From a virus (taxonomy: Duplodnaviria > Caudoviricetes): DNA of 57,192 nt. The notes under the pieces are model-generated. The model worked only from the letters and a program-made list of their open reading frames with translations. It searched no databases and was not told where the DNA came from. The DNA is taken from positions 1 to 57,192 of IMG/VR virus record IMGVR_UViG_3300028025_001682. One strand, given 5' to 3'. Made by a program: the position numbers and the translations under genes. Positions 9,352 through 47,878 of the stretch are shown here, in pieces (the first letter of the stretch is position 1; each line of letters starts with the position of its first letter).

Positions 9352-10353
9352 ATGTCTACAAAGTTTGAACAACTATTAGACTTGATCGTCAATGAAGAAA
9401 TGGATAAAGCCAATGAGCTATTCCATGAGATCGTTGTTGAGAAGTCAAGAGATATCTATGAGAATTTAATTGCTGAAGAAGCAGAAGAAGAAATGGACGA
9501 AGCCGCTGACGAAGAAATGGACGAAAGCAGCGATGAAGAAGAAATGGATGAGTCCGCTGACGAAGAAGAAATGGACGAGTCTGCAGAAGAAACAGAAGAA
9601 TCCGTTGACCTAGAAGACAGCTACAGCATGGAAGCTGACGACGAAGAAGGCGATATGGGCGGTGACGCTACAGACGACTTCGGCGCTGACGTTGGTGCTA
9701 TGGACGGTGAAATGGGTGGCGAAGAAGGTGAAGACGCAGCCATTTTTGACATCAAGAACGCCATTGAAGAACTAGAAGCAGCCTTTGCTAAACTAGAACA
9801 AGCCCAAGGTTCTGAAGAGCCACACGGTGAGTTCGGTGACGAAGAAGGTGGCGAAGAAGACGAAATGGAAATGATGGGTCAACCAGCATTCGAAGGTCGT
9901 CGTATGACACGTGAGTACACTGAGAACGTTGGTACTAACTGGGAAAAAGGTAGCACACAGAAAGCTCAAGGCCAATACGCAGGTGCTGGTACAGGCGATA
10001 AAGAAGGTGCTCCAGTAGAAGGTAAAAGCCCAATCAGCAGTGGTTCTGGTAAGCCAAACAGCGGCGCTAATGCTAAAAATCTAGCACAAGGCCAAGCTGA
10101 AGGTCAGAGCAACACTGGTACAAGCCCAGGTAAAGTAAACAACGGCATTACAAAAACAGCCGGTGAAAAACTTGCTAGTGGCATGCACAATGTTGACGGA
10201 GTTAAGTCTGGCGTTAAGACACTAAGCAAAGTTGCTGGTGGCCATGGCGCTGAGAAGAAGGGTGCTGCTCCAGGACCAGTAGGTTCCGGAACAGGCGACA
10301 AAGCTGGTCAAACCAGTGTTGCTAAGATCCCTACATTTCTTAAGAAACTATAA
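9352..10353 (+). CDS. Acidic prohead core/scaffold-like protein
   Basis: Very Glu/Asp-rich N-half, Gly/Lys-rich C-half; sits between portal and protease like T4 gp67/gp68. Confidence 0.65.
   Translation: MSTKFEQLLDLIVNEEMDKANELFHEIVVEKSRDIYENLIAEEAEEEMDEAADEEMDESSDEEEMDESADEEEMDESAEETEESVDLEDSYSMEADDEEGDMGGDATDDFGADVGAMDGEMGGEEGEDAAIFDIKNAIEELEAAFAKLEQAQGSEEPHGEFGDEEGGEEDEMEMMGQPAFEGRRMTREYTENVGTNWEKGSTQKAQGQYAGAGTGDKEGAPVEGKSPISSGSGKPNSGANAKNLAQGQAEGQSNTGTSPGKVNNGITKTAGEKLASGMHNVDGVKSGVKTLSKVAGGHGAEKKGAAPGPVGSGTGDKAGQTSVAKIPTFLKKL
9484..9591 (+). repeat. Four imperfect 24-27 nt tandem repeats encoding EE(E)MDE(A/S)xD
   Basis: gaagaaatgga(c/t)ga(a/g) occurs four times. Confidence 0.75.
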
Positions 10354-12122: not shown

Positions 12123-13304
12123 ATGTCACAATTATTAAATGAAAGATGGTCAGAGACCAAAGAAGCTCTGCTTGAAGGCCTATCTGGTACACGTAAGTCA
12201 TCTATGGCAGTTTGCCTAGAGAACACACGCCGTCACTTGGCTGAGAGCGCAACTGCTGGTGCTACAAGCGCTGGTAACATCGCAACACTTAACCGTGTTA
12301 TTCTTCCAGTAATCCGTCGTGTTATGCCGACTGTTATTGCTAACGAAATCATCGGCGTTCAGCCAATGACTGGACCTGTTGCACAGATCCACACTCTACG
12401 TGTTCGTTATGCTGACGGTGTTGCATCTGGCGACACAGTTACAGCCGGTGAAGAGGCACTAAGCCCATTCAAGATCGCTCAAGCGTATTCTGGTAACAAC
12501 GCTTCTAACGGTGGTGCTAATACCACAGCCGCTCTAGAAGGTACACCAGGTAAGCGTATGAGCATTCAGATCTTAAAGAGCCCAGTTGAAGCTAAGTCTC
12601 GTAAACTAAGCGCTCGCTGGACTTTTGAAGCTGCTCAAGATGCACAAGCCCAACAAGGTATTGACATCGAAGCAGAAATCATGGCTGCTCTAGCACAAGA
12701 AATCACAGCTGAAATCGACCAAGAGATTCTAACATCTCTACGTTCTTTAGCTTCTGTTGAAGAAACTTATGACCAATCTTTAGTATCTGGTACAGCTACT
12801 TTCGTTGGTGATGAGCACGCTGCTCTTGCTATCCAGATCAACCGCGTAAGCAACTTGATCGCCCAACGTACACGTCGTGGCGCAGGTAACTGGGCTGTTG
12901 TTTCTAACCAAGCATTGACAATTCTACAATCTGCTACTACCAGCGCTTTTGCTCGTACAACAGAAGGCACATTCGAAGCTCCTACAAACACTAAGTTTGT
13001 TGGTACATTGAATGGCGCTATGAGAATTTATGTTGACGCATACAAGTCTGACACAGACGACAACAACCAAGTTCTAATTGGTTACAAAGGAACTTCTGAG
13101 GCAGATGCTGCTGCATTCTATTGCCCATACATTCCTCTAATGTCTTCTGGCGTTGTTCTAGACCCAGCAACATTCGAGCCAGTAGTTGGCTTCCTAACAC
13201 GTTACGGCTACGTAGAGTTGAGCAACACTGCTTCTTCTCTAGGTAACGCTGCTGACTATCTAGGTAAAGTTGCTATCACTAGCGCAAACGTAAGCTTCAA
13301 GTAA
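12123..13304 (+). CDS. gp23: Major capsid protein
   Basis: GVQPMTGP, AKSRKLSARWTFEAAQD, EITAEIDQE, FYCPYIPL, TRYG; strong codon bias. Confidence 0.97.
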   Translation: MSQLLNERWSETKEALLEGLSGTRKSSMAVCLENTRRHLAESATAGATSAGNIATLNRVILPVIRRVMPTVIANEIIGVQPMTGPVAQIHTLRVRYADGVASGDTVTAGEEALSPFKIAQAYSGNNASNGGANTTAALEGTPGKRMSIQILKSPVEAKSRKLSARWTFEAAQDAQAQQGIDIEAEIMAALAQEITAEIDQEILTSLRSLASVEETYDQSLVSGTATFVGDEHAALAIQINRVSNLIAQRTRRGAGNWAVVSNQALTILQSATTSAFARTTEGTFEAPTNTKFVGTLNGAMRIYVDAYKSDTDDNNQVLIGYKGTSEADAAAFYCPYIPLMSSGVVLDPATFEPVVGFLTRYGYVELSNTASSLGNAADYLGKVAITSANVSFK

Positions 13305-13331
13305 TCCGTTACTTGTTTTTACAAACAAAAC

Positions 13332-13353
13332 AACCCGCTTCGGCGGGTTTTTT
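13332..13353 (+). terminator. Intrinsic terminator with C(UUCG)G loop
   Basis: AACCCGC-TTCG-GCGGGTT-TTTT after capsid gene. Confidence 0.9.
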
Positions 13354-13366
13354 GTTGACTATCCAA

Positions 13367-13372
13367 TAAATA
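13367..13372 (+). promoter_or_regulatory. Late promoter core TAAATA
   Basis: AATAAATA just downstream of terminator. Confidence 0.65.
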
Positions 13373-13387
13373 AACAGTCTAGATTAT

Positions 13388-13422
13388 TATGCTGTACCCA
13401 CAGCGTATGTCATAGAATGACA
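13388..13422 (+). promoter_or_regulatory. Two-hairpin leader motif, copy 1
   Basis: TATGCTGT-ACCC-ACAGCGTA then TGTCA-TAGAA-TGACA, directly before AAGGA. Confidence 0.65.
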
Positions 13423-13438
13423 CTTAAGGAATTAAAAA

Positions 13439-14557
13439 ATGGGAAGACCTCTCAAGAAAAAATTGTTTGGCGCTAATGCCAATAACAATCTTAAAGTACA
13501 ATTCAGCACAGGAACTAACGCAAGTGTTCCTGGATACATTGTTGAACAACTGGGTACTAAAAAATTTAAATGCCGAGATGCAAATGGTTATACAGCAATT
13601 TGCAGATTAGTTACAAAGCCAGCCGCACTATTAAGTTCTGGAGAAATGAGTATTACTGTTAAGTATGATGACAACACAGTAAGACAAGTTTACAAAATTG
13701 CGGCACACAGAATTTCTGTCAATCCTATTAGCACAGGTACTACTACAGTAGGTATGGCTACAGCAGGATGGACATTCTCTACAAGCACAACAGATACATT
13801 ATGGCAGATTGAAGAAGCTGGTACTGACACTACAGTTACTGGTGATATTGATCTTGAAGGTGACGACGGCCCAACATTACCGTTTGGAATGGATCGTAAT
13901 GCTCCGTTGCCAGGAAGTGGTGCTCCTCTCTTTACAACAGCAACATCTGGCATTGTAGCCTACACATTAAAAGGTACAGCATACAATCCAGGCGCTGGCG
14001 TAGCAAGTGTTACAAACAGCACAGCTGGTCTATACCGTAAGAAGTATGTTGGTTTAGCTTTAACTGCTGCTGGAAATACAAGTACATGGAACATGAACTT
14101 CTTTAGTACAGGTACATCGATCTCGACAGCAGATAAAGAAGTTGATACTTTTGTTAGCTTTGGACAACGCGATGACTTGCCCTACGAAGATGGTTACAGT
14201 TTTGAGTGGAAAGGTTATATCTACGCAGATACAACAGCTACCTATAACACTGCTATTACCTGCGATGACGATGTAGTTATGTGGGTTGGTAGTGCAGCCT
14301 TAGCACCTGCTAAGACAAACGCTCACCATGCACAGGCCTACATCAATCAAGGTCAAGTTGGATACAATCCTAACAGTTTATCTTTAACTGGCGGTTTGTA
14401 TTATCCAGTTAGAATTTGGTTTACTGAATACGGCGGCAGCGAACGCTTCCAGCTATTCATGAATCGTTCTACAGGAGCTCAAACAATGTTAGGTGGTACT
14501 GGAACAAGTGCAATTACATTTGCTCACAACAGTGCTACACAAGGATACAACCCATAA
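13439..14557 (+). CDS. Putative capsid decoration protein with C-terminal PA14/GLEYA-like domain
   Basis: MGRPLKKK start; EWKGYIY..TATY....CDD...MWVG and GLYYPVRIWFTEYGG are PA14-like; follows capsid gene. Confidence 0.65.
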   Translation: MGRPLKKKLFGANANNNLKVQFSTGTNASVPGYIVEQLGTKKFKCRDANGYTAICRLVTKPAALLSSGEMSITVKYDDNTVRQVYKIAAHRISVNPISTGTTTVGMATAGWTFSTSTTDTLWQIEEAGTDTTVTGDIDLEGDDGPTLPFGMDRNAPLPGSGAPLFTTATSGIVAYTLKGTAYNPGAGVASVTNSTAGLYRKKYVGLALTAAGNTSTWNMNFFSTGTSISTADKEVDTFVSFGQRDDLPYEDGYSFEWKGYIYADTTATYNTAITCDDDVVMWVGSAALAPAKTNAHHAQAYINQGQVGYNPNSLSLTGGLYYPVRIWFTEYGGSERFQLFMNRSTGAQTMLGGTGTSAITFAHNSATQGYNP

Positions 14558-14564
14558 TGGGTTT

Positions 14565-14601
14565 TATGCGGTACCCACTCCGCGTAGCAGATAGATTCTG
14601 C
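14565..14601 (+). promoter_or_regulatory. Two-hairpin leader motif, copy 2
   Basis: TATGCGG-TACCCACT-CCGCGTA then GCAGA-TAGAT-TCTGC, before AAGGA. Confidence 0.65.
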
Positions 14602-14626
14602 TAATTTTTATATAAAGGAAAACAAA

Positions 14627-15343
14627 ATGGGACGCCCAATTAAAAAGAAATTCTTCGGTAATCTAATTACCCCTTATCAAAATCAAGCAACCGGTGGCCG
14701 TACTGGTGTCGGCGGTGAAGGTATCACTACTTTATTAGTTACAAACACTGCAACTAACAGCGGATATAGCACAACAACTTCAGTTACTTGGGTAGCAAGT
14801 GCTCCTCAGATTGCTGGTGGTGTTGCTGCCAGCGGTACAGCCGCAGTTACCTATGTAGGTGGCACAGGCCGTATTCAAAGTTTAACTGTTGTTGATTCTG
14901 GTACTGGCTATACAACAACAGGTAGTTTAGCATTAACATTTACACCTAGCTCAGCAGGTACAGCCGCAACTTTTGTTGCTACAACATCTACAACACGTCA
15001 AAATGCTATTGCATTTGTTTCTTACCTAACAACAGGTTCTAGTGCGGTTAATTCTGGTGACATTCTAAAACAAGAAGCCAGCAAGCGTTATCTAGTTCAA
15101 AATTCTCAAGGTCAAGGCCAGTGCAAACTAGTAGCATCACCGACTCTAGCAGCAGGTCAAATGAATATCATTGCTACTGATGCTAATGGAAGCACTTACT
15201 TTGTTAAGAAGCTAACAGCTCGTAAAGCAGTTGTTGCACAATCTACAATGAGTACTGCATTCTTAGTAGGTGACGGTGTATCTACAGGATGGACTTTAGA
15301 TGCGCCATCTGGAACTATTGTCTCTATTAGAGATACTGTCTAA
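14627..15343 (+). CDS. Putative capsid decoration protein, paralog of 13439
   Basis: MGRPIKKKFFG start; shared I..Q...K.(Y/F).....G...C.LV and G.M.I motifs. Confidence 0.65.
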   Translation: MGRPIKKKFFGNLITPYQNQATGGRTGVGGEGITTLLVTNTATNSGYSTTTSVTWVASAPQIAGGVAASGTAAVTYVGGTGRIQSLTVVDSGTGYTTTGSLALTFTPSSAGTAATFVATTSTTRQNAIAFVSYLTTGSSAVNSGDILKQEASKRYLVQNSQGQGQCKLVASPTLAAGQMNIIATDANGSTYFVKKLTARKAVVAQSTMSTAFLVGDGVSTGWTLDAPSGTIVSIRDTV

Positions 15344-15361
15344 TATTTTTAGATATAATAA

Positions 15362-15384
15362 AGGGACTCTTCGGAGTCCTTTTT
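15362..15384 (+). terminator. Intrinsic terminator with C(UUCG)G loop
   Basis: GGACTC-TTCG-GAGTCC-TTTTT. Confidence 0.88.
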
Positions 15385-15974: not shown

Positions 15975-18900
15975 ATGGCAATCACTACCTATTACTCTAC
16001 CACACCAAACGGCAGCACTGCTACCGGAACTAATCAATCTAATGTTTTAAACATTCCTAACGACTATTTGTTAAATGTTGCTGGAGGAAAAATAAACGTT
16101 ATATCTGGTGGTGATACTATTGTCGAAGCAGGAGGCAATGCAGAAATATATGCAGGCACTGAAATCATTATTGAAGCTACTGGTGATAATGTTACCATTG
16201 AATCAGTTGGCAGTAAGGTTACCATAGATGCTGCTTCTAATATTGAACTAACTGCAAATACAAAAGTAATTGTAGATGCTCCCGACACAGAAATATGGGG
16301 TAATACTCAACTAGGCAACGATTTAAATGGTGATGAAACAGATTTCCAATCTAGAATTATCAGTGATTTTCTTCCTAAAGTAGCCAGCGGTGAAACAACA
16401 TCAACATACAGTATCGGTTCATCTTCAACTCAATGGTTAAAGACAAATATCTCTGAAGGTGAATATTTCAGCGGTAAGAATCCCGGTAACCCATATTTTG
16501 AATTTGGACCAAACGGCCGCCCATACGATCCAGGTGACATTTATGATACAGCTGAACATAGAAAACAAGCATCTGTATATGTTGCAGGTGGAGTGGGTAT
16601 TGAAAAAGATTTGAACGTAGGTGGTAGAATCTATGGTAGAATTGAAATCGCTAATACTTCTTTCCAATTAGTAATTACTTCAACAAACGTAGATCAAGTA
16701 TTCCATCCGCTGTTTGCCTTGAACTCAGGAGAACAGTTTGTTTATGTTGACAACGTTGGACTTGAAAATGGTTTAACTTACAATCCATTTTCTGGAAGAC
16801 TTGGTGTTGAATTATTGAAAGTTGTAAACACACAAACTGCTACAGCGACCACTGGCTCTATAAGAGTTGAAGGTGGTATTAGCGTCGGTGAAAATATTGT
16901 TACCAAAGAAGTTACTCCTCTTGAAGATGCAGAAACAGCCACTGAAGTATATGGACTAGGTACGACTTCTTCACAGTGGGCAGAAGCATACGTACACAAT
17001 CTTTACACTAAAGTAATTGCATCTACTGATAACAGTAATATAGAAATTAAACCTCAAGGTGGTCGAGCTGACATATTTGGAGACCTTAGAGTTAGAGGCA
17101 CTAACCCAATTGGAACTGCTCCTGTAGTTTCAAATACCTTGTATGTTACCATGGACGGTGATGATACCAATGACGGTCGAGCCATGGATGCAAGCCGTGC
17201 TTGCCGCACTATTGGCGGCGCTGTAAACAGCCCGTACTATCAACCAGGTACACAAATTTTAGTCAGTGCCGGCTTCTACTTAGAAGACAATCCTATTAGA
17301 ATGAAGCCTTACACTTCTATTAGAGGCAGTGACATTCGTACAACATTTATTGAACCAATTAATAAAACACAAGATTTATTCCATGTCGACAGTGGATGTT
17401 ATCTAAACTATATGACATTCTTGAACGGACGTTCAGGATTACTTGAAGGTGATTACGAACCTCAATTTAATAGAGGTGCCTATGCTACATCATTCCCTCC
17501 ATTAGAAGGCGATGAGCGTATTGACTTGTTCCACTCTCCATACATTCAAAACTGTACTAATCAAAGTGGCCCATGGTTGAAAGATGGTACAATGTTTGTA
17601 CCAAATCAAACAGTCCAAGTTCCTAGAGCAGTTGGCACAGGCACTTGGGTTGCTAATACTACTACGTTAATTGTTAATGTAAATGCTGGCACAATTACAC
17701 AAGGCGATTCTGTAAATGCAGGACAACAGAATCCAGGGTTCTTCAATGCTCGTACATTGATGTTGGCTAACAAGCCATTCTTACAAGAGCAAGTTGTTGC
17801 CTATGTTGATGCTACATTCAACAGCGGATCATTTACATATAATGTGCCCAAGTGCAGACGAGATCTAGGACTTATTGTAGATTCTATCTCCATGGACATG
17901 TTGTACAACAGTGACAGTGATAGTATATTTGCAGGTCTTCAATATTGGAGTCAAAGCAGTTCTGCTATTCCAGGAGAAGAAACAACTACTACCGCAGCTA
18001 TTACTAATCTAAAAAGTTTGGCAGCAACAGTGGCATTAAATGCTGGTGGTGCAACTCCTCAAACCACTGTTAACACTCTGTTCTCTACAATTACAAATAT
18101 TATCACCAATGGAACAGTTAACATCAGTGATCAAATTTTAGCTAATGGATTACCAAGTACTGATTCAAATACAGTTGCAGCCTATACAGCATTGTTGGCT
18201 AACAAAGCAAGTTTGCAAACTCAAACATTGGCCTGGATCGCTACAAACCATCCAACGTTTGTTTATAACACTACTACATGCGCCAGAGACGTAGGATACA
18301 TTATTGACAGTGTAGCATTTGACTTGTTACACGGTGGAACAAAACAAAGTGTTAAGTCTGGAGTTTATTACTACAACTACAGTACAACCAGCACAACTAT
18401 ACCTAATGAAATTCCGCAGACTACTGCGGCCTACAGTTATCTAAAGAGAATTATTCCTAACATTGTCACGGGTGAACCTCTTGCAACAGTTTATCAAACT
18501 GGAACAACACAGGTAATTATTGGTCAGCCAATTGCCAGCACCTATGAAGCTGAAGCATTGCAGGCTAAGATTGATGTTATCACTAATATTATTAGAAACG
18601 GTCCCGATGTTGTTACAAGTCAAGAACCTATTGATTTAGAAATTAACCCATCTGAAGAAGCAGTACACGCATTCAATCTATTAGAAGCTAATAAAACTTT
18701 TATCAAAGATGAGGTAATTGCTTATATTAATGCAACTACGGGTGTATTTGATTATAGTAGAGAATATTGCTACAGAGACGTGGGTATTCTAGTAGAGAAT
18801 ATTGCCTACGATGCTGCATTTGGTGGAAACCAAAAAGCAGTTGAAAGCGGTCTAGCTTACTATGACGGTGTTATCAGTAAGATATCAGGACAAGAATCAC

Positions 18901-21900
18901 AGACATCAGCAGCCATTGATTATTTGAATCAAATGGTTCAATCTATTATTGTTAACAATACTTGGACTAATATATTAACGGTTCCGACATCAGTTGCACC
19001 GTTTGGTACTAGCTCTCAGGTTAGAAATACAGTATTACTAAACGGTGACATTGCCGCAGCCTCTTTAGACAGTTTGTTTAACACTGTAGTTACAATTATT
19101 AACAATGGTCCAGACGCTGCTCCTGCGGTATACAAATCAGCAGGACCCGACGCTGCCTTTGTTAGTGCTGAAATTTTAATGCAGGCTAATAGAAGATTTA
19201 TTCAGGAAGATACAATCAACTATGTTAATAACTTAGTTAAGGCATTCCCTTATAGTAAAATAGCTTGTAAGAGAGACGTTGGATTAATTGTCGATTCTAT
19301 TGCAACAGATTTACTATACCAGACAACTAACAGAAGTCAGAGTACTTTCTCTGGATTGCAGTACTGGGCTCAAGGAACATACACTGGTGATATTCCAGCG
19401 CAGATTGGCCCTACAATTGATGCAGTAACTTACTTAAAAGAGTTGTCTTTAAAAGTTATTAGAAATATCACACCAGCAGATGACCTAGTTAACAGATATC
19501 AATTTGCTGTTACACAGGATACTTCACTAACTCCTGCTAGTGCAGTTGAAGCCGCAATTATTTCTGCAGACTTTGATATTGTTCTTGAAATTATGAGAGG
19601 CAATAAGAAAGGCTGGACAGACCGCATTGTACCTAATGGAGATGAAACAAATCTACAAGGTGTTAAGAATGCCTACAATTTATTAATTGCAAACAAAGAA
19701 TACATGGCTGCTGAAGTACTAGCCTACATCAATGCAATTCATCCAGACATTACATTTAACACATCTACATGTGCAAGAGATGTTGGACTAATAACTAATT
19801 CAATTGCCTTTGACTTAACACACGGCGGTAACAGACAAGCTATCCAAGCAGGTCTAAGTTATTATGCAGCGTCTGGTTCAACTAGTACCATCCATGGTCA
19901 AGAAACACAGACTATTGTTGCATTCAATAGAATTAAAGATATTGTAGCTGGCATTATGACTGGAACACCAGTTGTACCTACTACAGGTACTAATGTTGCT
20001 CAAGTACTGTCAACATCTACGGCAACTGTCACTGAAGTTGCTTATGTACAAGGTTCTATTACAACAATTACAGATATTATTATCTACGGTGCAACAGTAG
20101 CCGCTGACTTAACCAGCGTTGGCTTAACTGCAACTACTGCAACATCCGTAATCAATGGCTTCAATTTATTAAAAGCCAACAGAGAGTTTATTGTTGATGA
20201 CGTAGTTAAATTTGTTGATTGGACCTACAATCAAGGTAGCTTCAATTACAATGAAGAAAAATGTTTTAGAGATACTGGATTACTAGTTGACGCAGTAAGT
20301 CAGGATATCTTGTTAGGCGGAAATGCTAAATCTATCGAAGCAGGTCTTGGATATTGGGTAGGAAACTACAGTTACATAACTGGCCAGGAAACTACAACAA
20401 CACTAGCCATTAACCATGCAAGAGATATTGCCCTACAAGTTATTGCCAATACTCCTGTAACTGTACAAACTGGTACTGAGATTGCTCAAGTTATTAATAC
20501 TTTCTTCCAATACGGTGGTGACTATATGCCACAAGAGGCTGTTAAGAGAGGATTTAATACTATCACCGATATTATTAATAGAGGTCCAGCGTTTGCTCCT
20601 CCATCATATATCGGTGGCGGCTTGTTTGCATTAACAGGTATCAATGGGGCAGACGTAAAGATTTCTCCAACAGTTACTTCAGTGACTACTATTACTACTG
20701 GAACATATCTTGTATCTCTTGATATGCCTACTATTGGTTTTGGTAACAATGCTACATTATACTTTGGTGATACATTAATTTACCCTCAAAGAGATTCCGA
20801 AGTTGAGGCATTGAGTTTAGAGTACACAGGAAATGCAAGTACTTGGAACCAACGTAAAGTTGATCCTATCGGTAGTATGGGTGGAAGTTTAGTCGACGGT
20901 GGAGTTATTAGTGCTCGTAGTCCTATTAACTCTTTTGTTTATGATGCGTTTACACAAGTTAACCAAGGTGGTCGCGGAGTTAGAATTACCAACGACGGCT
21001 ACGCACAGTTAGTTTCCGTGTTTACAATTTTCTGTTCTACTGGTGTACAAGTTGACAACGGTGGTATTGCCTCCATTGTTAACAGTAACGCTAACTTCGG
21101 TGATCTTTGCTTGGTTGCTAAAGGATTTGGTAAGAGAACATTTAGCGGTACAGTTTATAATCCGATCAACAAAGCATACCCAGACGATGCAGAATTTAAT
21201 CAATATTATCCAACTGGTTACTGGCCAAACAATGCTCAAGTTCGAGTATTCATTCCTGACCTAGATGATCGTCCACACATTTCCTTGGTAATGGAAGTAG
21301 TACCTCCAGACTTGTATACTGATTACACTGGTTCAGTAGTTCCATATGTTAACGAACAAGGATTTGAAGGGTTCTTAAATGCTGTTCCTAACCTAGGAGT
21401 GTTGTCTACAGGAACTATTACTATTACTGGAATTGACACTACTGGTATTGCAGTGGGCAATTCGTTGTACATTAGAGACCAATTTGGTAGCCAAACTGGC
21501 ACCAATGGTATATTATACGTAGCTACCGATACTGTTGTAACTGACATTGGTTATCAAAGTGTTACATTGAGCAAAGCATTAATTAGCGGCGGTGAAGATC
21601 CAACAAATACTACCTCAACTATTAACGCTAACTACTTTAATTTATATTTCTGCGGTAATGCTTACTACACAGTATTAAGTAGCGAAATTGGTGACAATCC
21701 TATTCCAGTAGGAACAAATGTATTGAGAGATGCACCAACAGGCGACCAACGTCCTGAACACATTGCATCACTACAGCGTTTAAATTCTATAGTTGTTCAA
21801 GCAATTAAAAATGAAGCAATTGTTCCTACAACTGGAAATACTAGTACACAGGTTACAATGCCGTTGCTAACTGATGGTGGACTAGCAGAAACATTTATCA

Positions 21901-22619
21901 ATCAAAGATTTGATAATATGATTGAAATTATCAATCCAACACTAGCAACTCCAGTGCAAGCAGATACACTAGCCGGAGCAGAAGCAGTAGTTAAACCAAG
22001 TTTAAGAACTAAGACTGGACCAACAGTGCAAGGTGCTGGCGCTGCCATTGCTTTGATTACAGAAAACTTAGATTACTTTGTTGAAGAAATTAGTGCGTAT
22101 GTGCAAGATGCTTTCCCAACATTAGTGTATAATGATCTCAAGTGTCGTAGAGATACTAAATTAATATTACAACGATTAATTTATGATATTGAAACAGGCG
22201 GAAGATACAATTCAGTTATGATTGGCCTAAGTTACTGGCAACGAGAAGGAACGCATCATCTTGTTCAGCTAGGTGAAAACGTTACAAGAACAGACTTGTT
22301 CCCAGATGGTGCAAGTGTTAACTTCTACCAACGCAGTTATATTAGTGCCAGTGGATACGTATTTGAATACGTAGGTGCAGGAACGAACTATGGTGCATTG
22401 CCACAACGAGGTGTAGCAGATCCTGTTCAATCTAAAGAGGTTGTTCAATTAGACAGTGGTAAAGTATTCTTTACATCAACAGATCAAAACGGTGACTTCC
22501 GTATTGGTCCAGGACTAGTAATTAGCCAGGCAACTGGTGTTCTAAGTGGTAGAACATTTACTAAATCATTATTTGCTAATATGACTCCGTTCATATTAGC
22601 TATCGAGGCCGGAGGCTAA
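15975..22619 (+). CDS. Giant virion structural protein: beta-helix-like scaffold interrupted by seven CxRD helical repeats
   Basis: 2214 aa; LYVTMDGDDTNDG..ACRTI, SPYIQNCT, FTQVNQGG, YAQLVSVFTIFC, STDQNGDFRIG; TAAATA 15954 and GAGG. Confidence 0.8.
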   Translation: MAITTYYSTTPNGSTATGTNQSNVLNIPNDYLLNVAGGKINVISGGDTIVEAGGNAEIYAGTEIIIEATGDNVTIESVGSKVTIDAASNIELTANTKVIVDAPDTEIWGNTQLGNDLNGDETDFQSRIISDFLPKVASGETTSTYSIGSSSTQWLKTNISEGEYFSGKNPGNPYFEFGPNGRPYDPGDIYDTAEHRKQASVYVAGGVGIEKDLNVGGRIYGRIEIANTSFQLVITSTNVDQVFHPLFALNSGEQFVYVDNVGLENGLTYNPFSGRLGVELLKVVNTQTATATTGSIRVEGGISVGENIVTKEVTPLEDAETATEVYGLGTTSSQWAEAYVHNLYTKVIASTDNSNIEIKPQGGRADIFGDLRVRGTNPIGTAPVVSNTLYVTMDGDDTNDGRAMDASRACRTIGGAVNSPYYQPGTQILVSAGFYLEDNPIRMKPYTSIRGSDIRTTFIEPINKTQDLFHVDSGCYLNYMTFLNGRSGLLEGDYEPQFNRGAYATSFPPLEGDERIDLFHSPYIQNCTNQSGPWLKDGTMFVPNQTVQVPRAVGTGTWVANTTTLIVNVNAGTITQGDSVNAGQQNPGFFNARTLMLANKPFLQEQVVAYVDATFNSGSFTYNVPKCRRDLGLIVDSISMDMLYNSDSDSIFAGLQYWSQSSSAIPGEETTTTAAITNLKSLAATVALNAGGATPQTTVNTLFSTITNIITNGTVNISDQILANGLPSTDSNTVAAYTALLANKASLQTQTLAWIATNHPTFVYNTTTCARDVGYIIDSVAFDLLHGGTKQSVKSGVYYYNYSTTSTTIPNEIPQTTAAYSYLKRIIPNIVTGEPLATVYQTGTTQVIIGQPIASTYEAEALQAKIDVITNIIRNGPDVVTSQEPIDLEINPSEEAVHAFNLLEANKTFIKDEVIAYINATTGVFDYSREYCYRDVGILVENIAYDAAFGGNQKAVESGLAYYDGVISKISGQESQTSAAIDYLNQMVQSIIVNNTWTNILTVPTSVAPFGTSSQVRNTVLLNGDIAAASLDSLFNTVVTIINNGPDAAPAVYKSAGPDAAFVSAEILMQANRRFIQEDTINYVNNLVKAFPYSKIACKRDVGLIVDSIATDLLYQTTNRSQSTFSGLQYWAQGTYTGDIPAQIGPTIDAVTYLKELSLKVIRNITPADDLVNRYQFAVTQDTSLTPASAVEAAIISADFDIVLEIMRGNKKGWTDRIVPNGDETNLQGVKNAYNLLIANKEYMAAEVLAYINAIHPDITFNTSTCARDVGLITNSIAFDLTHGGNRQAIQAGLSYYAASGSTSTIHGQETQTIVAFNRIKDIVAGIMTGTPVVPTTGTNVAQVLSTSTATVTEVAYVQGSITTITDIIIYGATVAADLTSVGLTATTATSVINGFNLLKANREFIVDDVVKFVDWTYNQGSFNYNEEKCFRDTGLLVDAVSQDILLGGNAKSIEAGLGYWVGNYSYITGQETTTTLAINHARDIALQVIANTPVTVQTGTEIAQVINTFFQYGGDYMPQEAVKRGFNTITDIINRGPAFAPPSYIGGGLFALTGINGADVKISPTVTSVTTITTGTYLVSLDMPTIGFGNNATLYFGDTLIYPQRDSEVEALSLEYTGNASTWNQRKVDPIGSMGGSLVDGGVISARSPINSFVYDAFTQVNQGGRGVRITNDGYAQLVSVFTIFCSTGVQVDNGGIASIVNSNANFGDLCLVAKGFGKRTFSGTVYNPINKAYPDDAEFNQYYPTGYWPNNAQVRVFIPDLDDRPHISLVMEVVPPDLYTDYTGSVVPYVNEQGFEGFLNAVPNLGVLSTGTITITGIDTTGIAVGNSLYIRDQFGSQTGTNGILYVATDTVVTDIGYQSVTLSKALISGGEDPTNTTSTINANYFNLYFCGNAYYTVLSSEIGDNPIPVGTNVLRDAPTGDQRPEHIASLQRLNSIVVQAIKNEAIVPTTGNTSTQVTMPLLTDGGLAETFINQRFDNMIEIINPTLATPVQADTLAGAEAVVKPSLRTKTGPTVQGAGAAIALITENLDYFVEEISAYVQDAFPTLVYNDLKCRRDTKLILQRLIYDIETGGRYNSVMIGLSYWQREGTHHLVQLGENVTRTDLFPDGASVNFYQRSYISASGYVFEYVGAGTNYGALPQRGVADPVQSKEVVQLDSGKVFFTSTDQNGDFRIGPGLVISQATGVLSGRTFTKSLFANMTPFILAIEAGG
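17853..22200 (+). repeat. Seven protein-level CxRD repeats (Cys codons 17853, 18279, 18768, 19266, 19770, 20262, 22143)
   Basis: Approximate consensus (F)xYxxxxCxRDxGxIVDxxxxDxxxGGNxxxxxxGLxY; spacing 142-168 aa for the first six. Confidence 0.85.
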
Positions 22620-47862: not shown

Positions 47863-47878
47863 TATTTATAGCTAAATA
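47863..47878. promoter_or_regulatory. Back-to-back late promoters TATTTA-TAGC-TAAATA
   Basis: TATAAATA on - (47870-47863), 7 nt before ATG 47855; TAAATA on + (47873-47878), 5 nt before ATG 47884. Confidence 0.75.

Follow-up and report, generated by a model that had tools for sequence, protein, structure and literature searches.

Freshwater-2 RNA leaders at MGRP genes beside the capsid gene of aquatic jumbo phages, and a putative pairing of their hairpin loop with the start codon

Background

A described system which may work like the RNA leader reported here is the operator of the Escherichia coli rpsO gene. In the excerpts of PMC3985624 this operator alternates between a double hairpin and a pseudoknot formed via the loop of hairpin 1, the Shine-Dalgarno sequence lies on a long loop of the pseudoknot, and the product S15 binds the pseudoknot and traps the 30S subunit. 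Here we surveyed a leader, with a proposed anatomy of similar outline, which occurs twice in a 57,192-nucleotide (nt) stretch of viral DNA (Duplodnaviria; Caudoviricetes; positions 1 to 57,192 of IMG/VR record IMGVR_UViG_3300028025_001682), called the window from here on, in front of two genes whose proteins begin with the residues MGRP. The window is a 57 kb fragment, the completeness of the record being 16% by CheckV. The leader is not a new element, both copies being members of the catalogued Rfam family freshwater-2 (RF02980). The likeness to rpsO is a comparison of how the two may work and not a relation of sequence or family: rpsO encodes a ribosomal protein and has a known pseudoknot, whereas the genes here encode phage virion proteins and the pseudoknot would be one suggested by complementarity and partial covariation.

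Freshwater-2 is of type Cis-reg and has been in Rfam since a survey of 2017; no function is assigned to it there, and to our knowledge it had no classified or assigned carrier. Its consensus consists of a variable hairpin P1, a hairpin P2 of the form UUAUGCNG...CNGCGUA, a hairpin P3 with the loop UAGAAC and then the Shine-Dalgarno consensus AAGGAGAAAAcAAAUG. The survey from which it stems presents 224 candidate RNAs, and the word 'freshwater' occurs 0 times in its main text; the supplement may already carry remarks on phage origin or gene context (PMC5737381). No paper text discussing the motif was found in the literature searched. On the side of transcription the comparison is with the related phage CBB, for which excerpts of PMC5259590 give ATAAATA at 35 sites, predicted to drive late structural genes and likened to TATAAATA of T4, and also a gp55-like sigma factor.

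Identification of the two leader copies

The Rfam scan matched both copies to RF02980. Copy 2 scored 59.3 bits (E 6.7e-8), over the gathering cut-off of 49.9 bits, and copy 1 scored 42.3 bits (E 1.8e-4), which is a clear match but under that cut-off; the model, with the Shine-Dalgarno site and AUG at its 3′ end, ends on the ATG of both MGRP genes. We regard membership of the family and the late-leader context as practically certain.

All coordinates are those of the window and its plus strand unless stated. In copy 1 the hairpin P2 occupies 13388..13407 (stem TATGCTG 13388-13394, loop TACCCA 13395-13400, stem CAGCGTA 13401-13407) and has 7 base pairs (bp) including a U.G wobble. P3, TGTCA-TAGAA-TGACA, abuts it with no spacer at 13408..13422, and the Shine-Dalgarno site AAGGAA of MGRP gene 1 follows at 13426..13431, with the ATG at 13439. 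In copy 2 the Rfam alignment gives a P1 of AACCCA-UAA-UGGGUU at 14549..14563, the loop of which is the stop codon of gene 1. P2 follows at 14565..14586 (stem TATGCGG 14565-14571, loop TACCCACT 14572-14579, listed as RNA UACCCACU, stem CCGCGTA 14580-14586) and P3, GCAGA-TAGAT-TCTGC with the loop UAGAU, at 14587..14601; the Shine-Dalgarno site AAGGA of MGRP gene 2 is at 14615..14619 and its ATG at 14627. The sequence UAAUUUUUAU comes directly after P3 of copy 2 (window 14587-14610) and was seen only in that copy; it is a weak terminator-like site between the MGRP genes which might lower the expression of gene 2.

Both copies resemble the consensus in architecture. The P2 stem UAUGCNG/CNGCGUA is exact in both, its variable pair being U-A in copy 1 and G-C in copy 2, and P3 is present and abuts P2 in both. 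They differ from the consensus in their weaker Shine-Dalgarno sites and in the last one or two bases of the P3 loop, AUAGAAU and AUAGAUU (UAGAAU and UAGAUU in place of the near-invariant UAGAAC; YUAGAAC across the family). In copy 1 the P1 columns of the model fall on the promoter motif, TAAATA being only 14 nt from P2, and there is no real P1. This hairpin looks dispensable, because 17 of the 136 TAAATA-bearing leaders share a similarly short spacing of 12-16 nt.

The exact 13-mer TATGCNGTACCCA has two occurrences in the 57 kb record, at the two leader copies only. When the core was allowed up to 2 mismatches, 6 matches were found in the record, no excess over chance, with a mean of 4.66 in shuffled sequences and 6 or more in 32 of 100 of them, so the significance rests on the two exact copies and their placement. 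The folds are more stable than those of shuffled sequences: the 35 nt of copy 1 reach -12.5 kcal/mol (z -4.40, equalled by 0 of 200 shuffles) and the 37 nt of copy 2 reach -15.3 kcal/mol (z -3.95, equalled by 1 of 200). Our own covariance model, R1, scores the copies at 71.6 and 69.1 bits, matches which exist by construction since both copies are in its training alignment.

An initial annotation of the window, made from its letters, had described the two hairpin pairs and a compensatory T-A to G-C change in stem 1 between the copies; hairpins, loops and stems were all found exactly as it wrote them, and the change is present at stem position 6. The comparison with Rfam which it proposed gave RF02980, a family it had missed, together with the third variable 5′ hairpin P1 of many members, the late-promoter motif before copy 1 and the complementarity between loop and start codon.

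Distribution of the leader and its place beside the capsid gene

The IMG/VR collection was scanned for the exact pattern TTATGCNGTACCCAC, which gave at least 120 loci. Among the matches listed, at least 100, with 79 unique leaders, show the complete arrangement up to an MGRP start, and 20 arose by chance; a second pattern in which P2 was left free gave 118 loci, of which 69 are true. Searched with the RF02980 model, 24 of 25 records hold 1-2 copies each, the 25th being a chance pattern match. The CheckV completeness of the carrier fragments implies genomes of about 350 kb throughout.

In the window the leaders sit just 3′ of a gene for a gp23-like major capsid protein at 12123..13304 (Pfam PF07068 Gp23, E 3.5e-97), which has about 70% nucleotide identity with the capsid genes of Rak2/121Q/CBB-like jumbo phages. 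A capsid gene with 77-92% protein identity is found in 18 of 23 records, and in 15 of these it is followed at 50-1063 nt by the motif in the same orientation; in the other three of the 18 the motif is 1.8 kb behind (one record) or far away (two records).

A sample independent of any leader pattern was built from the best 80 relatives of the capsid gene (75-99% identity), and these loci were searched with R1. The leader is present in 61 of the 80, in every case on the same strand as the capsid gene and 48-1412 nt past it, and 58 of the 61 leaders stand before an MGRP start. Conversely, a leader is present for 54 of the 55 MGRP open reading frames (ORFs) of at least 60 amino acids (aa) in these loci. 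Among the 19 loci that lack it, 10 have at most 334 nt of sequence past the capsid gene, and the other 9 have different genes there and no MGRP gene.

The carriers form a clade of aquatic jumbo phages that are uncultured and whose genomes, judged from CheckV completeness, measure about 350 kb. In bacterial species-representative genomes 38 pattern matches were found, 7 of which are true leaders, on contigs of GTDB genomes (L710, L712, L713, L717, L722, L726 and L727); all are in metagenome-assembled bins, labelled as seven unrelated taxa, and are most likely mis-binned jumbo-phage contigs. No isolate bacterial genome of this species-representative set matches the leader pattern, and the matches point to no host. 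A search of 50,697 phage records with both MGRP proteins (tblastn) and with the leader (blastn) gave nothing usable; the homologues in phage Atu_ph07 described below came to light by structure and profile searches only.

Secondary structure and covariation

In the alignment of 65 leaders (A1), pairing is kept in 96.9% of the cells; shuffles keep it in 75.8%, and 0 of 500 attain the observed value. The covariation score is 0.457 against 0.090, with slid controls at or below 0.062. The 61 leaders found without any leader pattern gave a similar picture, 94.9% paired against 76.8%, with 8 of the 11 pairs changed on both sides; this second alignment is biased towards the model, having been fitted to it.

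The core is made of two coaxially abutting hairpins that vary in opposite ways: P2 has a near-invariant stem of 7 bp, whereas P3 has a freely covarying stem and a near-invariant loop. In P3 all four pairs covary and the loop YUAGAAC hardly varies. In P2, 6 of the 7 pairs, including the U.G wobble, are near-invariant, and one (pair 6) covaries, being G-C in 35 leaders, U-A in 19 and A-U in 9. P1 is present in 110 of the 119 leaders with room for it and starts a few bases past the predicted transcript start. The Shine-Dalgarno site of the family is strong, near consensus and mostly unpaired: in ensemble folds the mean unpaired probability is 0.68 in its region and 0.05 in the 5′ strand of P2. 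A structured, covarying, cis-acting leader tied to the MGRP genes, as the initial annotation had proposed from two copies, is therefore supported by the Rfam match, by covariation in two sets of leaders and by the 54 of 55 MGRP ORFs.

A subgroup of leaders (among them L010, L027, L131 and L145) has an extra conserved element, AUCGGACUUCU, AUAGGACUACU or AUUGGACUCCU, between P3 and the Shine-Dalgarno site, which the window copies lack. Its CUUCU/CUCCU could pair with the Shine-Dalgarno AGGAG or partly with the P3 loop UAGAA and may be a second switch. Pairing of the GGAC of this subgroup with the GUCC of codons 3-4 was also considered and rejected on reading the sequences, no association with the arginine codon used being found.

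Proposed pairing of the P2 loop with the start codon

At its 3′ end the P2 loop reads CCCA, which is complementary to UGGG, that is, to the UG of the AUG and the first two bases of the glycine codon 2. In the window the proposed partner of the loop CCCA of copy 1 (13397..13400) is UGGG at 13440-13443, and that of the loop CCCA of copy 2 (14574..14577) is UGGG at 14628-14631, each pair being a candidate pseudoknot helix. At least 4 contiguous pairs with positions -1..+8 are kept by 34 of 38 unique P2 loops, against a mean of 18 and a maximum of 27 for shuffled loops (0 of 1000 reach 34), and the loop variants that are kept include UCCA, CCAU, UCCC, CCCG, CCUA and GUCC. A position scan along the transcript gave a fit of the loop only in windows over the AUG.

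In a recount over all loci 37 of 42 loops have at least 4 pairs, and in 33 of these only 0-1 nt separates the duplex from the loop 3′ end, the loops being 5-15 nt long. A duplex that keeps this place while loop length varies agrees with the geometry of a pseudoknot of the H type in which it would stack on P2. These pairs were counted from the sequences, since the model alignment puts loops of the CCCA and CCAA types in different registers.

Further evidence comes from leaders with another second codon. Scans for other second codons yielded AUGGC starts only, and the scan for ...ATGH (non-AUGG) starts gave chance matches only. Among the 21 unique AUGGC-start leaders, 12 carry the loop GCCA, an exact compensation which none of the 38 AUGGG-class loops has. 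Fitting each class to both starts bears out this specificity: loops of the AUGGG class match their own in 34 of 38 cases and an AUGGCA start in 6 of 38, and leaders of the AUGGC class match their own in 14 of 21 and an AUGGGA start in 3 of 21. The 12 compensated leaders span at least three protein subfamilies (L671 with MARPLHKRFFG, L621 with MANKVNNRYFG, and a group with MARG, MAKG or MAKF).

Two other roles of P2 were tried and rejected. Pairing of the loop with the Shine-Dalgarno site gave no peak, windows from -15 to -6 having 1-4 of 38 fits against 34 of 38 at the AUG. An upstream ORF beginning at the AUG of UUAUGC in P2 has no Shine-Dalgarno site before it and no conserved reading frame, because the loop length varies over 5-15 nt.

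Putative late promoter and transcription of the leader

A motif of the T4 and CBB late-promoter type, NATAAATA or NCTAAATA, stands 5′ of the leader, where its role as promoter is putative. TAAATA is found 12-51 nt 5′ of P2 in 136 of 138 unique leaders, against 118 of 1190 random windows on either strand, and the commonest forms are GATAAATA (80), GCTAAATA (19) and CATAAATA (17). In the window the motif AATAAATA is at 13365..13372, 14 nt 5′ of the TTATGC of copy 1. Copy 2 has no late-promoter motif upstream and sits between the two cistrons. The element is a cis-acting mRNA leader, in copy 1 downstream of a T4-type late-promoter motif.

The same class of motif occurs before many ORFs of the window, at 10-25 nt, and by this distance the 74-nt structured leader of the MGRP gene stands out. 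In a wider range of 10-50 nt, NATAAATA or NCTAAATA was seen before many ORF starts (2996, 15952, 28558, 41836, 47871, 53411 and 55859 on the plus strand; 47870 and 5054 on the minus strand). T4 late transcription starts about 6 nt past the promoter motif, and several motifs of the window are so near the ORF start (e.g. GCTAAATATTGATATG at 47871) that the mRNAs would be near leaderless if the same distance holds here.

In four freshwater or estuary metatranscriptome contig sets (at least 88% likeness), coverage is confined to the capsid gene 3′ end and runs to about 13323, apart from a few pieces of low depth in the MGRP genes. Neither leader is covered; contigs cannot show transcript ends. Many of the metatranscriptome pieces are 95-100% identical to the capsid gene 3′ end (window 12900-13323), by which close relatives occur in freshwater and estuary RNA libraries, DNA carry-over being possible.

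MGRP proteins and their link to the virion

MGRP gene 1 (13439..14557) encodes 372 aa, with the N-terminal family domain and a C-terminal PA14/GLEYA domain, and MGRP gene 2 (14627..15343) encodes 238 aa. By BLASTP the two proteins share only their first 11 residues, MGRPxKKKxFG; both appear to contain the beta domain of the family, in different positions. Proteins of the family range from 117 to 464 aa with different architectures, and have in common the N-terminus and a domain rich in beta structure, about 120 aa long. Searches of 20-22 family proteins with Pfam and PHROGs gave no family for this common domain, hits being found only in inserted structural-repeat parts. A structure model of residues 1-150 of gene 1 (mean pLDDT confidence 76.8) resembles an SH3/Tudor/KOW-like barrel, the match being weak (Z at most 5.9). 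The C-terminal domain of gene 1 is of the PA14/GLEYA carbohydrate-binding type (Pfam E 6.6e-14 and 3e-8) and fits an exposed, sugar-binding protein of the virion surface.

Among the predicted viral structures of BFVD the named proteins that match best both come from Agrobacterium phage Atu_ph07, gp466 (E 1.5e-5) and gp498 (E 9.1e-7), and their genes are also the two hit by the family profile (gp498 E 6.8e-14, gp466 E 2.9e-11). The accessions were mapped to these gene product numbers from gene order, a tail-fibre gene six genes away being gp472, and from mass. Both proteins are well covered in Atu_ph07 virions, gp466 by 21 unique peptides (62.8% coverage) and gp498 by 23 (75.5%) (PMC6102473 table S5), from which we infer that the MGRP family is virion-associated. 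Like the window genes, gp466 and gp498 have the MGRP N-terminus, the family domain and a late-promoter motif upstream; unlike them, they have short unstructured leaders and do not lie beside the capsid gene. The whole genome of Atu_ph07 has no freshwater-2 above noise, the best RF02980 match (21.7 bits, E 0.1) lying elsewhere. Just before the late-promoter motif 5′ of gp466 (L692:2700-2800) the sequence has what appears to be a tRNA-like end, GGTTCGAGTCC...ACCA.

The initial annotation had called the two MGRP products decoration proteins. The genes are late virion-protein genes beside the capsid gene, with distant homologues in virions; decoration of the capsid itself is only plausible, from the position beside the capsid gene.

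Possible function of the leader

Our preferred reading, which we offer tentatively and to which we give a substantial chance, just short of an even one, is that of a translational operator which switches from a double hairpin to a pseudoknot and back. CCCA, with which the P2 loop ends, would pair with UGGG of the start codon and codon 2, forming an H-type pseudoknot in which P3 and the exposed Shine-Dalgarno site are looped out on a long connecting loop and the AUG is masked. Two states would then alternate, a translatable double hairpin and a start-masked pseudoknot on which the 30S subunit may be bound but stalled. Such a switch would set the amount of an abundant virion protein relative to capsid, or let a factor regulate it. 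More speculatively, the invariant P2 stem and P3 loop may be contacted by a trans-acting protein, one of the two states being stabilised in this way, for which protein the MGRP protein itself (autogenous control) or another late protein would be candidates. Autogenous binding of the leader by the MGRP protein is in our judgement improbable. The fuller scheme also appears unlikely; in it freshwater-2 would be a pseudoknot operator whose loop tip pairs with the start codon of the gene for an abundant, probably capsid-accessory, virion protein and whose stem and second loop are bound by this product once it exceeds the assembling capsids, which would couple supply to capsid output as S15 and T4 gp32 suggest by comparison.

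Several points weigh against the switching operator. Nine of the 21 AUGGC leaders are uncompensated (a CACCA(A) group of 5, L423 with UCCCC, L367, L628 and L356), 4 of the 38 AUGGG-class loops have only 3 pairs, and the pseudoknot helix has just 4 bp, with a free-duplex energy of about -5.5 to -6.5 kcal/mol. For the compensation a Fisher test gives p 2.6e-7, which overstates the case and is no true probability, because the sequences are related; likewise, the count of independent compensations is a reading of protein subfamilies and not tree-based. The conservation of CCCA and that of AUGGG could have separate causes, MGRP being kept in Atu_ph07 without the leader. The spacing from P3 to the Shine-Dalgarno site varies over about 3-35 nt, so a factor bound to P2 and P3 would not always overlap the ribosome site. 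The operator model leaves the partner of the invariant P3 loop unexplained, and the SH3/Tudor/KOW-like fold predicted for the protein, itself a weak match, says nothing on RNA binding. The operator and pseudoknot steps are read from sequences, and the trans factor is putative. Peptide and RNA do not strictly need each other either, and a mutual need of MGRP N-terminus and leader is weakened by the MGRP genes of Atu_ph07 and of L275 that have no leader and by the 21 leaders which stand before genes starting with MA. The L275 case (L275:4369-6100) is a tandem pair in which a leader precedes a gene starting with MANG (184 aa), followed by an MGRP gene (368 aa) without a leader of its own.

The alternative that survives best, still rather unlikely in our estimation, is a constitutive module for stability and expression that needs no regulator. 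The 5′ hairpins P1 to P3 would shield the late mRNA from 5′-end-dependent decay and keep the A-rich ribosome site free, giving a high fixed output of an abundant virion protein, and the conservation of sequence would reflect common descent. The position of P1, a few bases past the predicted transcript start in those 110 of 119 leaders, agrees with this, as do the near-consensus and mostly unpaired Shine-Dalgarno region (0.68) and the very short leaders of other late genes of the window, beside which a long structured leader marks a special need of expression. Protection, however, needs no specific loop bases, and across capsid lineages which are 75-99% identical the P3 loop and P2 stem are near-invariant while the P3 stem is free; copy 2 is internal to its transcript and has no promoter; and the fit of the loop to the start codon and the switch from AUGGG to AUGGC with GCCA are left unexplained.

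A recombination cassette has a smaller chance and is in our view quite improbable. Promoter-stem-loop cassettes have been proposed as recombination units in T4-type phages, and here promoter, leader and the first 11 codons would serve as homology for swapping or duplicating the variable bodies of surface-exposed virion proteins. The block is indeed conserved while the proteins behind it range over 117-464 aa with varied architectures, tandem copies exist (the window, G008 and G021) and the window paralogues share by BLASTP only those 11 residues. Against it, compensatory changes keep both helices paired, which indicates selection on RNA structure and not on DNA identity alone, and 1-2 copies per genome are few for a shuffling system; besides, a cassette would be compatible with an RNA function rather than an alternative to it.

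A small riboswitch-like element had been suggested in the initial annotation. A riboswitch in which a metabolite or ion would bind the two-hairpin unit and alter access to the start site is very improbable: the conserved unpaired bases of two adjacent hairpins and two conceivable alternative states would suit it, as would the subgroup element GGACUUCU, which on reading could pair with the Shine-Dalgarno site or the P3 loop, but conservation is confined to one stem and two small hairpin loops, no pocket could be built from a conserved bulge, junction or internal loop, the genes are late structural ones and not metabolic or transport genes, and the 1-2 copies per genome are always at the same gene. 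Equally hard to credit is a role in transcription, in which the element would serve between genes as intrinsic terminator or attenuator, or else belong, as DNA, to the late promoter, since although P3 of copy 2 is followed by the terminator-like UAAUUUUUAU and copy 1 is only 14 nt from the promoter motif, P3 in the rest of the family is followed by A-rich sequence with no U-run, the distance from TAAATA to P2 varies over 12-51 nt and, with variable spacing on both sides of a rigid P2-P3 unit, does not suit a promoter element, and the covariation points to a folded single strand.

Other features of the window

The capsid transcript appears to be closed by an intrinsic terminator-like hairpin with a T-run at 13332..13355 (stem 13332-13349, 7 pairs of which 5 are GC, then TTTTGTTG), and the two-gene MGRP unit by the hairpin GGACTCTTCGGAGTCC with a T-run at 15364..15384, for which the inverted-repeat terminator listing gives the same repeat on the minus strand only. 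The window also encodes a prohead protease, 5′ of whose gene lies a gene for a very acidic protein of 333 aa (9352-10353). An ORF of 2214 aa with internal repeats (15975-22619) begins 23 nt past a late-promoter-like motif.

Significance

The analysis ties freshwater-2 to late transcripts of jumbo phages and to one gene family beside the capsid gene, with virion homologues in a cultured relative. Even if the pseudoknot fails, the motif is still a precise metagenome marker for this clade of phages. The pairing of the loop with the start codon is a concrete structural hypothesis which is testable by mutation. If it is true, the leader would be a rare example of a structured RNA that controls a structural gene of a phage, and a compact and portable element of translational control.

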